From a bacterium (GTDB lineage: Bacteria; Arandabacterota; Arandabacteria; Arandabacterales; JALGWA01), in the NCBI GenBank assembly GCA_050125095.1, contig JASFEA010000007.1, positions 1 through 44,501 on the forward strand: a DNA stretch of 44,501 bases, given 5' to 3'. Each line of letters opens with the position of its first letter. Positions within the stretch are counted from its first letter, which is position 1. The notes under the pieces were generated by a model. The model was not told the DNA's origin. It ran no database searches and saw only the letters and a program-made list of their open reading frames with translations. This document shows positions 3,736-44,501 of the stretch, one piece after another. The translations under genes were made by a program, and so were the position numbers.

Positions 3736-4368
3736 TCACTGCATCGGGAATTCCCTGATCTCCGCAATAAGCCACCAGTCTTCATCTGCAGGGTCCCGGA
3801 CTATTTCAATATCGAGAAATGTGAATTCCACCGCGTAGACGCCGGGCTCGCAGGCGAGCCCGTCTGCTGCCACCACCTGTTTGAATTCCGCCCAGGTCAC
3901 GGGAGTGATGCCCAGCGTCCCGGGCTCTCCCACCTCTATCCGGACATCAGACTCCAGCCTGAAAAGCAGGCCCCCCTCGGTCGCCCAAGGCCCGTTGGTT
4001 ATGACGATACTCATATCGATGCCGGTAACGCACTCATGCTCGAAGAGCTTCCGGGCTGCCGCCAGGTCATCCTGTCTTGTCAATGAAACAGCAGAATCCT
4101 CTTCGCCACCCGTAAGTGAAAGAGAGTGCGTATAGCCGTCGGTCAGACACGATGCATACTTGTCGATGTCCTTGCGCTCATATGCGTCGGCCCAGAACAT
4201 CATCATTGTCTCAGGTGTGGGCGGCACGGGAACACCGATGGGATCCTTTGTCACTTCATCACCACCGCACCCGGGGAGAAGCGCAGAAAGGGTAAAGGCC
4301 AGCACGGCCAGGCATATAACCCCGATGGAGATCCGTCTTTCGCAGCTCCTCGATTTCCCAACCCTCAT
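3736..4368 (-). CDS. Hypothetical lipoprotein (possible NTF2/SnoaL-like fold)
   Basis: Lipobox LLPGC; AYERKDIDKYASCLTDGY and a C-terminal WWLIAEIRE pattern typical of NTF2-like folds. Start may be 4383. Confidence 0.6.
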   Translation of the reverse strand: MRVGKSRSCERRISIGVICLAVLAFTLSALLPGCGGDEVTKDPIGVPVPPTPETMMMFWADAYERKDIDKYASCLTDGYTHSLSLTGGEEDSAVSLTRQDDLAAARKLFEHECVTGIDMSIVITNGPWATEGGLLFRLESDVRIEVGEPGTLGITPVTWAEFKQVVAADGLACEPGVYAVEFTFLDIEIVRDPADEDWWLIAEIREFPMQ

Positions 4369-37657: not shown

Positions 37658-37855
37658 GGGGTCAGGTCTTGAAATGCACAATTGCCGGGGTCAAACTGCA
37701 GGGTCAGACTGCAGGGGTTAGGCCTCAGAATGCACAACACGCTCATCGCGGACGTGGAGGCGTCCCGCCCAGGCTTCGTGTTGCAAAGAAGCCAATGGCG
37801 GAATGCCAAGCAAGCCGCATGAGACTGGCCACTGTGCATTTCAAGACCTGACCCC
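37658..37855. mobile_element. Non-autonomous REP/REPIN- or MITE-like element with 23-bp perfect inverted repeats
   Basis: ggggtcaggtcttgaaatgcaca (37658-37680) is the exact reverse complement of tgtgcatttcaagacctgacccc (37833-37855); degenerate internal copies; intergenic; no transposase in the window. Confidence 0.65.
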
Positions 37856-39721: not shown

Positions 39722-41517
39722 GGCTTATCCACCTCCAGCCCGTTGCCGGCCGTGAACTGGAGTTTCACGAGATCCGAGTAATACCCCTCCTGTTTGACGA
39801 GTTCCTCGTGTCTTCCTCTCTCTATTATCTCCCCTTCGCGAATGACCAGGATCTTATCCACGTTGCGTATGGTCGAGAGCCGGTGCGCTATCACTATCGA
39901 TGTGCGGCCGCGCATCAGCGTCTCGAGGCCGTCCTGTATCAGCCTCTCGGTCTCCGGGTCCACCGAGCTCGTCGCCTCATCCAGCACCAGCACCTCCGGA
40001 TCGAAAGCCAGGGCGCGGGCGAAGGACAGAAGCTGGCGCTCTCCCCGGCTCAGGTTCGCCCCGCGCTCCGAAAGCTCCGACTCGTACCTGTCCGGCATGG
40101 ACTCGATGAAACGGTCGGCGGAGACCATGCGGCATGCCTCCATGACCCGCTCCCGGCTGTCGCCGTTTCCGGAGAGCGACACGTTGCTCGCGACATCGCC
40201 CGGGAAGAGGAAGATGTCCTGCAGCACCAGCCCGAACTTGCGCCTGAGCTCTGGAAGCCTCACGTTCCTGATGTCCACTCCGTCAACAAGGATTCTTCCC
40301 CTCTGAGGGTCGTAGAACCTGAAGAGGAGGTTGATCACGGTGGATTTGCCGCCGCCCGTGACGCCGGCCAGAGCGAAGCGCCCGCCCTTCGGGATGGTGA
40401 ACGATACGTCCCTGAGCGCGTAGTTGTCATCGCCCGTATATGAGAACCAAACGTTCTCGAACACGATCTCCGAGTCCAGCCCCGGCCACTTTACCGGGTT
40501 CACCGGGTCGGGCACTATCTCTTCATTGTCCAGGAGCCCGAATATGCGCTTGGCGCCGGCCACGGCCTTCTGCACCACCGCCAGTTCCTCTGCCGCCATG
40601 AAAACCGGCTCGAAGAACATGCGCACATAGGTTATGAACATCACGAGCGTGCCTATGGTGAGGCCCGTCACGCCGGCCCAGCGCGAGCCGAAGTAGAGCA
40701 CTATCGCGATGATCAACGTCTCCACGAAGAAGAGGAAGTTGAACATCACCACCACGATGAGCTCCGCCGTGACCTGCGGCTTGTACTTGGCGCGGTTCAC
40801 ATCATTCATCTTCCGCTTCACGTCGTCGGTGCGGTCGAATATCTGAATCACCTGCATACCCTGCAGGAACTCCGTCAGGGTCGCGGTGACGTCGGCCATG
40901 CGCTTCCTTATGACGAGCCACATGGGCGTCGTCGTCTTAAGGTAGAAATAGAGCGCCACCGTGACTATGGGGAACACGAGCAACACCACAAGCGTCAGCT
41001 TGGGCGCTATTATGAACATCCAGACGAACATCCCCGCGACGAGCAGCACCGATCCCACCATGGCCACGACCGTGTTGGTGAACATCATACGAAGCGCTTC
41101 TGTATCGGACTCGACGCGCGCCATCAACCGGCCCGGAGGGTTCTGGTCGAAGAAGGATATCGAGAGCCTGAGGATGTGGTTGAAAAGCCGCTTCCTCAGG
41201 ACGATCATCACCTTCTGCCCGATAATCTCCATCCTGAGGCGGAAGAGGTAATTCGTCACAAGGAACAGAGCCTGCAGGACGACGTAGACCGCCACCGTGC
41301 CCAGGAGACCCCTGTAATCCCTGCCCGCTATGTCAATGTCGATGGCGTGCCTGATGAGATTCGGTCCCGCCAGGTACACGACCTTCGAGATCGCAAGCAG
41401 GAGGAAGCAACCCGCCAGCCACCGGCGATGGGGCTTGAGGAACGGCAGAAGCCTTCCCAGTGCCCTTCTCGAGCTTATGCCGTCATGTTTTTCGTCTTCG
41501 TAATATGCCGATTCCAT
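39718..41517 (-). CDS. ABC exporter, fused TMD-NBD partner subunit with degenerate signature
   Basis: GRLMARVESD, GVTGGGKST, LSRGERQ, VLDEATSSVD, IAHRLST; ATG 41517. Confidence 0.93.
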   Translation of the reverse strand: MESAYYEDEKHDGISSRRALGRLLPFLKPHRRWLAGCFLLLAISKVVYLAGPNLIRHAIDIDIAGRDYRGLLGTVAVYVVLQALFLVTNYLFRLRMEIIGQKVMIVLRKRLFNHILRLSISFFDQNPPGRLMARVESDTEALRMMFTNTVVAMVGSVLLVAGMFVWMFIIAPKLTLVVLLVFPIVTVALYFYLKTTTPMWLVIRKRMADVTATLTEFLQGMQVIQIFDRTDDVKRKMNDVNRAKYKPQVTAELIVVVMFNFLFFVETLIIAIVLYFGSRWAGVTGLTIGTLVMFITYVRMFFEPVFMAAEELAVVQKAVAGAKRIFGLLDNEEIVPDPVNPVKWPGLDSEIVFENVWFSYTGDDNYALRDVSFTIPKGGRFALAGVTGGGKSTVINLLFRFYDPQRGRILVDGVDIRNVRLPELRRKFGLVLQDIFLFPGDVASNVSLSGNGDSRERVMEACRMVSADRFIESMPDRYESELSERGANLSRGERQLLSFARALAFDPEVLVLDEATSSVDPETERLIQDGLETLMRGRTSIVIAHRLSTIRNVDKILVIREGEIIERGRHEELVKQEGYYSDLVKLQFTAGNGLEVDKP

Positions 41518-41557
41518 CTCAGAGCTCCGCGGAGGACACGGCCTCCGCCATCTAATC

Positions 41558-41596
41558 AAAAAGCCCGCCGGACCTTCCGCTTGGTCCGGCGGGCTT
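41558..41596 (-). terminator. Leader (attenuator) terminator upstream of the ABC exporter
   Basis: Minus strand AAGCCCGCCGGACC-AAGCGGAA-GGTCCGGCGGGCTT-TTT: 14-bp stem plus U-run, about 40 nt before the ABC start codon. Confidence 0.85.
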
Positions 41597-41616
41597 GTTA
41601 GCGCCTTTATGTCGCG

Positions 41617-41718
41617 TTAGGTAGGCCGTTTAAGGTGACCTCCGCAGCCCGCGGACCACTCAGGAAGGATTCCAATACCGTTAAAATTCGGTATGAGAAT
41701 GTGAGTGCCTTTAACCAA
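41617..41718 (-). CDS. Putative 33-aa leader peptide MVKGTHILIPNFNGIGILPEWSAGCGGHLKRPT
   Basis: GGAGGT RBS 5 nt before TTG; stop about 20 nt upstream of the terminator; contains the antiterminator strand. Confidence 0.55.
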   Translation of the reverse strand: MVKGTHILIPNFNGIGILPEWSAGCGGHLKRPT

Positions 41719-41854
41719 TGTACACCTCCATAGCACATTCTCCCTTCCGGTGCCGGTCGGCTACTACTGAATCATTCGTCCCGTCAGCCTGTTATAAGTC
41801 CTTTGCTATTCCTTATCGTCCCCTCACAGCCCAGAATTAGTGCTAATCCATAGA

Positions 41855-41882
41855 ATTGTACATCAATTCCGGATTTTGTCAA
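41855..41882 (-). promoter_or_regulatory. Promoter for the leader and ABC exporter
   Basis: TTGACA (41882-41877), 16 bp, TACAAT (41860-41855). Confidence 0.65.
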
Positions 41883-41996
41883 GCTCTAAGAAGCCGGGCC
41901 CCGGGATTCGGGGATATTGCGCCACTCGCCGCATTCGGGTCGCGCGGCCCCCGCATGGCGCCGGGCGATCGCATCCGGATGGCAATTCGAGCGGCC

Positions 41997-43001
41997 TCAG
42001 CCGCCCCGGCGGCCGGCGACCTCCTCCAATATGATCTTCACAATCCAGTTTGAGACCTTGTTCTTGACGAGCCCTAAGAAACCCGGCCTGAAGTGATAGT
42101 GGGTCTGGGCCCAGAAGAAACATGCGTGGGGAAACTCGCGGTAAACGTCCCTCAAGACCGCCTCAGCGACTTCCCTCCTGTTGGTCCTGTACTTGCCCAC
42201 ATGCTTGATGCCCGGGCAGTTCCTGAGGAGCACATCGCACATTTCACCACCGTGCAAGCATTTGTCATAATCGCTGTATTCGTAACAGTTCCGGCCGTCG
42301 GGCAGGTACACGAGAAGCAGCGCCAGGTTGACGGTCCTCCTGCCGGCCTCGATGTCCCTCATAAAGACCTGGCCCGCGAGCATCTGCCAGGTCCTGACAT
42401 GCGGCTCATATTCCGCAAGGCCCGTCTCAATCAGGTCGGCCAGGAAAGGGTGCCTCGGTTCGAAATTAAGGAGCGGGTCCATCCTGAACCGGAAAGGGAT
42501 GTGGTTGTAACGCTCTTTATTCGGCCCATCACGCAGCTCGCCCGGCACCAGCTTCGTGTCCACTTTCTCGAAGGAGTGGGGATCATACGTGCGGGACAGC
42601 ACGTTCCTCATCGCTGGAATCTCCCTTATGCATATGTTGTCTATGTCCACATAGGTCCCTCCCCACCTGTACACGCAGGAGAGCCGGAAGAAGTCCGAAA
42701 ACAAGCCCCAGCCCAGGTCCTCCCTGTGCTCGTCCGACACACTCCCCTCAAACGGCGTGTCCATGACGACGTCGGCCGGCGACCACCTGACTATGTTTAC
42801 GGTATTAGTACCGGGCTCGACATGCTCGATCATGCTGGACGTAAGCGTATTGGAGAACACGTATACGCATTTGCCCTCATTGAAGAAGCATATGGTCCTC
42901 AGGCTGCAGTCGAGCCTGAGGCGCGCTTCCCGGTCCTTCTCCGCATACTCCCATAAGAGGTATATGTTATCGACCGAGGCATTGATGTCATCCGGAGTCA
43001 C
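41997..43001 (-). CDS. DXD-motif glycosyltransferase (GT32 / OCH1-like)
   Basis: SDFFRLSCVYRWGGTYVDIDNIC and FEPRHPFL motifs. Confidence 0.78.
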   Translation of the reverse strand: MTPDDINASVDNIYLLWEYAEKDREARLRLDCSLRTICFFNEGKCVYVFSNTLTSSMIEHVEPGTNTVNIVRWSPADVVMDTPFEGSVSDEHREDLGWGLFSDFFRLSCVYRWGGTYVDIDNICIREIPAMRNVLSRTYDPHSFEKVDTKLVPGELRDGPNKERYNHIPFRFRMDPLLNFEPRHPFLADLIETGLAEYEPHVRTWQMLAGQVFMRDIEAGRRTVNLALLLVYLPDGRNCYEYSDYDKCLHGGEMCDVLLRNCPGIKHVGKYRTNRREVAEAVLRDVYREFPHACFFWAQTHYHFRPGFLGLVKNKVSNWIVKIILEEVAGRRGG

Positions 43002-43229: not shown

Positions 43230-44501
43230 TTATCGCGGTCCCCGCACCGTCGGAAACTCATACCCCTGGAACGCCGACCGCGCCACGAGATAGGCCATGA
43301 CCAGGCCGGCCACGCTCAGCACCCACAAGAGCGCAACGCCACCGGGAACGGCCGTGGCCGCCTTTCTGACCAGGATCCCGATCGCCGCCGAGACTTTGTA
43401 TTCCTTTGTGACCCCGTTGCTCGACGCCCAGATCATCAGTATCAACGAACCAGCCGCGATGAACGTGATGACGAGATGGCCCCGGAGCAGCGATCTGCCG
43501 GGCGTCAAAGAGCGAAGCGGTCCCATTGCCATAATCAAATACAGAAACCACGGCAAGCCGACGCACATATAGACTACCGGAAGCGACAGCAGCCAGCCCC
43601 TGGCCCTGAGCTGTGGGTAGTCATCGAGGAGATTCATAGTCTCCACCTTGAGGGCCGTACCGCCTTCCGGGGTTCTCTTGAAGTACTTCCTGACGAGTTC
43701 GGCCGGAGGCACCTCTGTCCCGAAGACATCCGCGATGGCCCGGCTCAGCTGTTGCGCCACGAACTCTGGCGGGCTTCCCGGAGGAGTGTGGTAGGGCGAG
43801 AAGAGCACTAGATCCGTTCCCTTCACAAGCTCCGTGCTCCAGGTTGCATGGGCTTCGTCGCAGCAACCCTCCACTGGAGCGGGACTGCCGTTTGCACTGA
43901 TCTCCCAGTACTCGAGTGGAACGCGCACGTCGTAGCTGTGGTCATAGTATTTGGTGCCGTACGTGACGACTTCCTGGCCCGTGAAGAGACCCTTCGCCCG
44001 CACAGTTCCCACAGTGTAGCTGCCCAATGCAACCACGAGACCGGGAATGACAAGATACGCGAAAATCTTCCCCCTCGATATGGGCAGAGCGTCGACCATG
44101 TGGAGCCTGGGCAGCGCATAAGAGAGGAGGCCGCTCAGGGCCAGCAGGGCCCACAGAATCATAGCCGTGTTGGAAAGGCCTCCCAGGCCGTAACCCCCGT
44201 TCCTTAGACCCACGAAGGCCAGCCAGGTGAAGAGGAGCGCCGCAAGCCACGGATTATAGAGGATTCTGATGAGTACGCCACGCTGATTCACTTCGTCCGG
44301 CCCGGGCCCCCCGCGGGCGGCGCGGCCATATGGAGCGGCCGAATCCTCCCACCCGGTCTCAACCTGCTCCGCCTCCTCCGAATATCTGCTTGAGTCATGG
44401 GGCACCGCGTCGCTCGGCACTATTGCCAGGGCCCGGGGAAGCGACCGGTGGATGTGTACAAGAAGCGCGCCGGCAAGCGCGAGCGGGGCCAGCGCCAGAT
44501 A
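43230..44501 (-). CDS. Multi-TM membrane protein, possibly an ABC permease (partial, starts beyond the right edge)
   Basis: Frame is open from 44501 (YLALAPLALAGALLVHIHRS...); DALPISRGKIF permease-like motif; extracytoplasmic loop with CC. Confidence 0.6.
   Translation of the reverse strand, partial: YLALAPLALAGALLVHIHRSLPRALAIVPSDAVPHDSSRYSEEAEQVETGWEDSAAPYGRAARGGPGPDEVNQRGVLIRILYNPWLAALLFTWLAFVGLRNGGYGLGGLSNTAMILWALLALSGLLSYALPRLHMVDALPISRGKIFAYLVIPGLVVALGSYTVGTVRAKGLFTGQEVVTYGTKYYDHSYDVRVPLEYWEISANGSPAPVEGCCDEAHATWSTELVKGTDLVLFSPYHTPPGSPPEFVAQQLSRAIADVFGTEVPPAELVRKYFKRTPEGGTALKVETMNLLDDYPQLRARGWLLSLPVVYMCVGLPWFLYLIMAMGPLRSLTPGRSLLRGHLVITFIAAGSLILMIWASSNGVTKEYKVSAAIGILVRKAATAVPGGVALLWVLSVAGLVMAYLVARSAFQGYEFPTVRGPR

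Follow-up and report, generated by a model that had tools for sequence, protein, structure and literature searches.

Among the closest known systems is the bmrB-bmrCD leader of Bacillus subtilis, in which a heterodimeric ABC exporter is preceded by a short open reading frame (ORF) of non-preferred codons, and terminator and antiterminator share a strand; in the model as outlined in that account, the antiterminator is prevented while translation is fast and can form once it slows (PMC4191407). Upstream of other ABC operons, including one for multidrug export in lactobacilli, attenuator candidates with antiterminator structures, named ABC-leaders, were predicted through an analysis of premature terminators (Naville and Gautheret, 2010; PMC2965389), and attenuators preceding ABC transporters are, by the same description, already common as predictions (PMC2965389). 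The element considered here is a leader region on the minus strand of contig JASFEA010000007.1 (assembly GCA_050125095.1), from an uncultured Zixibacteria-like lineage of the FCB group; the whole stretch of 44,501 nucleotides (nt) that was analysed is called the window. The leader region occupies the 370 bases that, read directly from the sequence, separate an upstream gene from the first of two ABC genes, and it is probably, with a rough probability of 0.6, a leader-ORF (ribosome-mediated) transcription attenuator of the bmrB-bmrCD kind that controls a two-gene heterodimeric ABC exporter.

The likeness to bmrB-bmrCD, as far as the published description extends, comprises a leader ORF with a low codon index, a strand shared between terminator and antiterminator, and a heterodimeric ABC exporter in which one of the ATP sites is degenerate. 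An earlier reading of this stretch, made from its letters without database searches (the sequence-only reading), had already drawn the comparison with bmrB-bmrCD, and drew it aptly: the exporter is heterodimeric with structure matches to BmrCD, and the model outlined for Bacillus follows the same logic (PMC4191407). In contrast to bmrB, where the terminator is described as lying inside the coding region, the upstream ORF (uORF) of the window ends before the terminator arm, within the antiterminator domain; the D-like gene and the C-like gene stand in reversed order; and the host does not belong to the Bacillota. With the classical amino-acid attenuators of the trp, his, phe and ilv type, in the form summarised in two papers (PMC4191407, PMC2965389), the leader shares an ORF, mutually exclusive hairpins and a dependence on the position of the ribosome relative to RNA polymerase, but it has no conserved run of regulatory codons and no supported 1:2 anti-antiterminator, and it precedes exporters instead of biosynthetic genes. 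The ABC-leaders, by their description, would be other sequences and belong to other phyla (PMC2965389).

Rfam 15 yielded no match at the gathering score anywhere in the window, and relaxed searches over 41000-42400 (E<=1) and 41540-41870 (E<=10) returned only terminator-like tails of small-RNA models and matches at chance level, such as Trp_leader with E=1.4. A UGGU-containing strand about 65 nt upstream that pairs with the terminator 5' arm bears a superficial likeness to T-box sequence. A T-box leader (RF00230) was rejected as a candidate, since no T-box match appears in Rfam even at E=10, every base of the UGGU pairs with ACCA of the arm so that none is bulged, and a conserved 5' domain resembling Stem I is absent. 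A literature search found no paper on attenuators in Zixibacteria. The leader most likely represents a familiar type of bacterial switch, met here in an uncultured lineage that has been little studied, and as a leader attenuator it opens no new class of regulation. If the mechanism holds, the bmrB principle, control of multidrug-type heterodimeric ABC exporters by translation speed, would reach from Bacillota to an uncultured Zixibacteria-like lineage. The leader also hints that such exporters answer translation stress in environmental bacteria, and, at about 300 nt and with covariation support, it provides a compact test case in which the sequence of the leader ORF is free and its frame and position are kept.

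Terminator and antiterminator

A scan of a species-representative genome collection produced 25 loci, six of which (L001 to L006, from metagenome-assembled genomes labelled Zixibacteriota, Eisenbacteria or unclassified) hold orthologues of the first exporter gene, ABC1, at 68-88% identity; the upstream regions of these six align with the window leader. Counts over seven loci refer to the window together with L001 to L006, and the window clade consists of the window with L001 and L003. The seven leaders were used to build a covariance model (R1), which, when run over the window and all 25 loci (233,151 bases), recovered only the seven expected full-length copies and generic terminators. Common to all seven is a GGUCCGnnGGyU strand, followed by CGGrGGU and then by the terminator arms and T-run.

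The intrinsic terminator (41596-41561, on the minus strand like all leader features described below) has a stem of 14 pairs, 11 of them G-C, and a loop of eight; its 3' arm (41574-41561) is followed immediately by a T-run at 41560-41556. In the window it folds with -31.8 kcal/mol, arms and T-run are present in seven of seven loci, and the terminator is 88.8% paired across the alignment, which bears out the 14-base-pair (bp) terminator of the sequence-only reading. A simple terminator scan found one such structure in the region where 1.1 were expected, a count that is not significant alone; the significance of the terminator derives from stem strength and conservation and not from the scan. As a separate observation, a second CCGGAC(C/U) motif, resembling the terminator 5' arm, occurs just downstream of the terminator in L004 (~2125-2150), L005 (~3935-3950) and L006 (~3840-3855); it is weaker in L002 and lacking in the window clade. 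This second copy could pair with the terminator 3' arm in readthrough transcripts.

The terminator 5' arm belongs at the same time to a second structure: folds and alignment identify 41596-41582 as a shared strand that serves both as terminator 5' arm and as 3' strand of an antiterminator. The antiterminator 5' strand, UGGUCCGCGGGCU at 41658-41646 (uORF codons W-S-A-G-C), forms 13 pairs with 41595-41582 and leaves one bulged C, exactly the one-bulge complementarity that had been pointed out from the letters. Within the whole 246-nt leader this site gives the best duplex of the arm (-24.2 kcal/mol; equalled by 2 of 500 dinucleotide shuffles), and the equivalent strand is the arm's best partner within the leader in all seven loci, at a spacing of exactly 65 nt in six and of 67 nt in L002. 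When the 3' arm is left out, RNAalifold predicts the antiterminator helix unprompted and, nested in it, an inner hairpin P2 (41641-41623) that joins AGGUC at 41641-41637 to GGCCU at 41627-41623. Antiterminator helix and P2 together are 94.3% paired over 105 cells, with three pairs changed on both sides; the paired fraction and the covariation score were each reached by 0 of 500 shuffles, with the qualification that these counts come from seven sequences representing about four lineages and that related sequences can beat the shuffles of a pair-counting method. Sliding the partner columns lowers the pairing to 18-58%. P2 alone is 91.4% paired and contributes two pairs changed on both sides. One position of the shared arm, G in the window clade and A elsewhere, covaries with its antiterminator partner (C-G in three loci, U-A in three, unpaired in L002).

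Folds of the single sequences show the same alternation. Cut before the 3' arm, the RNA adopts the antiterminator in six of seven loci when the full leader is folded and in seven of seven when folding begins at the uORF; at full length, the minimum-free-energy structure holds the terminator in seven of seven loci (full leader) and in five of seven (from the uORF onward). Masking the antiterminator strand abolishes the antiterminator in all seven fold models, by construction. Since the terminator is mostly the minimum-free-energy structure and the antiterminator forms before the 3' arm, the choice of fold looks kinetic. The sequence-only reading had proposed that the two folds are mutually exclusive, to be checked by folding both conformers and by looking for covariation in homologous leaders; the shared strand, the recovery of both folds, the six orthologous loci and the covariation agree with it on each count. 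Two long-range pairings between the antiterminator region and the ribosome-binding site of ABC1 (I2 and I4) were dropped; on inspection about 7 of 15 positions are kept in L001, and the matches are taken as chance because of the CCGCGG palindrome.

Upstream of these structures, a sigma-70-type promoter (41882-41855) consists of TTGACA at 41882-41877, a 16-nt spacer and TACAAT at 41860-41855; the 11 of 12 consensus matches found by the promoter scan support the promoter named in the sequence-only reading. Transcription would start at ~41848, and a leader stretch of ~130 nt separates the promoter from the Shine-Dalgarno (SD) sequence of the uORF. The TTGACA hexamer occurs at the equivalent site in seven of seven loci, and the scan recovers the promoter also in L002 and L005, not in L004. 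A separate promoter between the terminator and the ABC start, which the same reading had regarded as fatal to its switch, was looked for by scan in the window, L002, L004 and L005, and no sigma-70-like promoter was found there.

The upstream ORF and the selection acting on it

The uORF (41718-41617) begins with TTG at 41718, 6 nt behind the SD sequence GGAGG (41729-41725), and has 33 sense codons and a TAA stop at 41619-41617, as had been read from the letters; the predicted peptide is MVKGTHILIPNFNGIGILPEWSAGCGGHLKRPT. The first possible start in this frame, according to the ORF listing, is GTG 41736. The uORF crosses the antiterminator 5' strand and P2, and its stop lies inside the antiterminator domain, 19 nt ahead of the terminator arm at 41596. 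An SD sequence, a start and a frame free of stop codons across the antiterminator strand are kept in seven of seven loci; the ORFs of 29-33 codons all stop 19-32 nt ahead of the terminator arm and 27-38 nt past the start of the antiterminator strand. The arrangement of GGAGG, 6 nt and start codon aligns in L001, L003, L005 and L006, and in L004 and L002 GGAGGAG or GGGAG stands 11-13 nt ahead of an ATG. The start codon stands 61 nt from the antiterminator strand in five loci and 66 nt in L002; in L004 the distance is 52 nt, a deviation of 9 nt that stays in frame. In shuffled sequences, a frame that crosses the strand without a stop and then ends ahead of the arm has a probability of ~0.18 per lineage; its conservation over four lineages whose uORF N-terminal halves cannot be aligned is suggestive, not decisive. 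The codon-usage index of the uORF is 0.41, compared to a median of 0.74 in neighbouring genes, and only 0.3% of gene windows are that low; such non-preferred codons match what is reported for bmrB, but they are equally expected of a frame under no translational selection.

Leader identity within clades is ~90%, compared to 56% (window and L001) and 72% (L005 and L006) at fourfold-degenerate sites of ABC1, which are 34-40% identical between clades; this difference within clades indicates that the leader is under selection. The codon changes of the uORF do not resemble those of a protein: 0 synonymous and 7 non-synonymous changes separate the window from L001, 1 and 5 separate L005 from L006, and 6 and 13 separate the window from L003. 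In the closest pairs, the uORF is at least as identical at third positions as at first and second positions combined; in ABC1, for comparison, the values are 0.63-0.77 for third and 0.92-0.97 for first plus second positions. The N-terminal halves of the uORF are unalignable between the four lineages. Near the C-terminus the peptides contain S-x-G-[Y/F/C]-G-G, with S, G, G and G invariant in six of six aligned peptides; the codons for this stretch coincide with the 5' sides of the antiterminator helix and of P2, and the pairing partners covary. The frame of the motif is kept in six of seven loci, and the ATG frame of L002 reads the stretch differently, past a poly-C/CA tract (L002 3766-3800), which may be either real or a homopolymer assembly error. 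The alignment of six peptides contains no conserved regulatory codon run, and Pfam and NCBIfam gave no leader-peptide family match for them. A peptide profile search of 1.84 billion representatives returned seven matches at E<=0.001; the sole match of 30 amino acids is the peptide of L005 itself, and two of the six longer matches, when inspected, were repeat-rich proteins.

What is kept, by these comparisons, is the RNA and, at the proper position, a frame that stays open and is preceded by an SD sequence, and not the peptide. Because the changes in the uORF are not protein-like, the act of translation, rather than its product, is likely to be the signal. The sequence-only reading had singled out an unrecognised leader peptide as a point of interest; the lack of protein-like selection, with 0 versus 7 changes between the window and L001, removes that interest.

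The proposed attenuator and its alternatives

Under the bmrB-like attenuator, the antiterminator strand 41658-41646 would pair with the shared strand and close a domain of ~65 nt that holds P2. A ribosome following close behind RNA polymerase would be located over the antiterminator strand or only a little beyond it, or be parked at the stop codon, at the time when the terminator arms emerge; the domain would be blocked, the terminator would form and the exporter would stay off. A ribosome that is delayed in the first ~15 codons, or that never loads, would allow the antiterminator to close before the 3' arm is made, with readthrough into the ABC genes as the result. The parts, their exclusivity, conservation and covariation are observed; from them we infer the translation of the uORF, the direction of the switch and the inducer. 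The sensed input would be the speed or coupling of translation, as affected by translation inhibitors, starvation or other translation stress, and no specific peptide would be involved.

Several observations weigh against this attenuator. By geometry, a ribosome at the stop codon leaves the antiterminator strand uncovered in most loci, and termination therefore has to rely on steric exclusion or timing, which is assumed. The candidate anti-antiterminator P0, a pyrimidine tract paired with CGGrGGU, is 77.6% paired and no better than shuffles; with no supported anti-antiterminator, untranslated RNA would default to readthrough (ON). The terminator of L002 is weak (-10.5 kcal/mol) and was missed by the scan, and L001 and L002, with their weaker terminators, keep the antiterminator as the equilibrium fold from the uORF onward. 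In the diverged loci the duplex of arm and strand is not significant alone (132 of 500 shuffles in L005 and 95 of 500 in L002). The covariation is real but thin, with few events. Finally, selection on the RNA rather than on the peptide also fits a switch that operates free of ribosomes.

This last point leads to the serious alternative, serious because of the RNA-level selection and the constant size of the domain, even if we consider it unlikely: a switch made of RNA only, a riboswitch or protein-binding leader, in which the pairing of 41658-41646 with 41595-41582 would be the closing helix P1 of a small three-way-junction domain, stabilised by a ligand or protein that blocks the terminator, with the ORF incidental. 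Nucleotides and not amino acids are under selection, the spacing of the closing helix is a constant 65 nt in six of seven loci, and the nested hairpin P2 shows covariation, all in favour of such a domain. Exporters are, moreover, often controlled by ON-riboswitches. The ABC-leaders are discussed as possible new riboswitches by Naville and Gautheret (PMC2965389). Yet no Rfam family is found in the window at the gathering score, nor, apart from tails of small-RNA models and chance-level matches, at E<=10 over 41540-41870, and between clades little is conserved inside the domain, with about four invariant columns (A33, A56, G59 and A69 of alignment A2), unlike ligand pockets. The 5' leader is also unalignable between lineages and lacks a 25-nt block in L003, and the SD sequence, start codon and frame open through the strand are kept in seven of seven loci.

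Doubtful, and to be ranked below an RNA-only switch, is a combination of both principles: the ~65-nt three-way domain, which belongs to no Rfam family, would act as a ligand- or factor-binding sensor placed over a translated ORF, and the exporter would be ON only if a lagging ribosome and a stabilised domain coincide.

Slightly less probable again is a sequence-specific arrest peptide, whose C-terminal [W/R/G]-S-x-G-[Y/F/C]-G-G-[C/H] would stall the ribosome, perhaps together with a small molecule, so that the stall sets the fold. The invariant S, G, G and G, and a frame that is maintained relative to the motif in six of seven loci, would be consistent with such a peptide; the same nucleotides, however, form the 5' sides of both the antiterminator helix and P2, and the covariation of their partners explains the conservation without a peptide. 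L002 reads the stretch in another frame, the distance from motif to stop codon varies between 2 and 5 residues, and no leader-peptide family of Pfam or NCBIfam is matched. A ribosome stalled on the motif would, moreover, mask the antiterminator strand and so promote termination (in seven of seven loci 0 antiterminator pairs are left, by construction), which would be odd for an inducible exporter.

Least probable of all is that there is no switch, but an independent small gene, or a terminator whose leakage sets a fixed low exporter level, with complementarity arising from a near-palindromic CCGnCGG core: the self-complementary CCGCGG/CCGGCGG cores in the arms do raise the chance of pairing, spurious long-range matches to the same strand occur (I2, I4) and in L005 and L002 the duplex energy does not reach significance, but the complementary strand stands at the same 65-nt distance in six of seven loci, is the arm's best partner in seven of seven leaders and covaries with the arm at one pair, conservation of the leader far exceeds that of synonymous sites, and the peptide of the supposed small gene lacks protein-like constraint.

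Exporter genes and minor features

The exporter downstream of the attenuator candidate is encoded by two overlapping minus-strand genes, each with an ABC_membrane and an ABC_tran domain. ABC1 (41517-39718, 599 amino acids) has a canonical Walker B motif and a degenerate signature, LSRGE in place of LSGGQ; ABC2 (39721-37907, 604 amino acids), whose start overlaps the ABC1 stop, has a degenerate Walker B, D-D in place of D-E, and a canonical signature. We take the D-D of ABC2 together with the LSRGE of ABC1 to mark a heterodimeric exporter in which one ATP site is degenerate. The best matches among bacterial solved structures are TmrA, TM288 and YheH (BmrD) for ABC1, and TmrB, YheI (BmrC) and TM287 for ABC2; the chains of BmrCD (YheI/YheH) are matched at 1e-86 to 1e-106.

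The start codon of ABC1 is ATG 41517, the point from which all seven orthologues share a conserved N-terminus, with GGAG at 41528-41525 seven bases upstream. The TTG at 41559 that opens the longest ORF was rejected as start, since it falls in the T-run of the terminator and the conserved N-terminus begins at ATG 41517; the left edge of 41558 given to the element in the sequence-only reading fits this TTG and has to be corrected accordingly. Between the terminator and the ribosome-binding site of ABC1, a 7-bp hairpin GCGGAGG/CCUCCGC (41548-41529) has a compensating version in L001 and none in L003; it may affect ABC1 translation or transcript stability.

The alternative uORFs listed by the sequence-only reading both exist, but with different fates. 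The 43-codon frame beginning at ATG 41738 (ORF listing) loses its ATG in two of the three closest relatives. The mini-ORF MEVYIG* (41731-41711), which overlaps the SD sequence and start of the main uORF, is retained throughout the window clade (window, L001 and L003) and in none of L002, L004, L005 and L006. A 9-bp helix (41742-41734 with 41703-41695) encloses the uORF start in the window; it was dropped as a candidate after inspection, only its 5-bp base surviving in L001 and L003. Together, MEVYIG* and this helix may add a layer of control on uORF initiation. Within uORF codons 9-15, the folds contain a hairpin of AUACCG, loop and CGGUAU (41694-41675) that is kept within the window clade only, with its stem retained and its loop altered in L001 and L003; a function as pause or timing hairpin is possible.

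The conserved unit does not extend beyond the two ABC genes. Downstream of ABC2, and outside the unit, follow yebC-ruvCAB-queA-tgt, with yebC next to the exporter elsewhere only in L001; upstream genes are common to none of the six other loci. The two upstream genes of the window (41997-43001 and 43230-44420, minus strand) show only a weak Gly_transf_sug match and no family, respectively. In L001 (5797-7649) the ABC2 orthologue appears in two tblastn pieces, residues 1-138 and 139-603, with a gap of 45 nt between them, which may reflect a frameshift or a problem of the metagenome assembly. Lastly, a perfect 21-nt inverted repeat, TGCATTTCAAGACCTGACCCC, flanks ~155 nt of the spacer between ABC2 and yebC at 37658-37678 (minus strand) and 37835-37855 (plus strand); these are its only two copies in the window, where 0 are expected by chance, and the repeat could represent a small mobile element or a regulatory palindrome.

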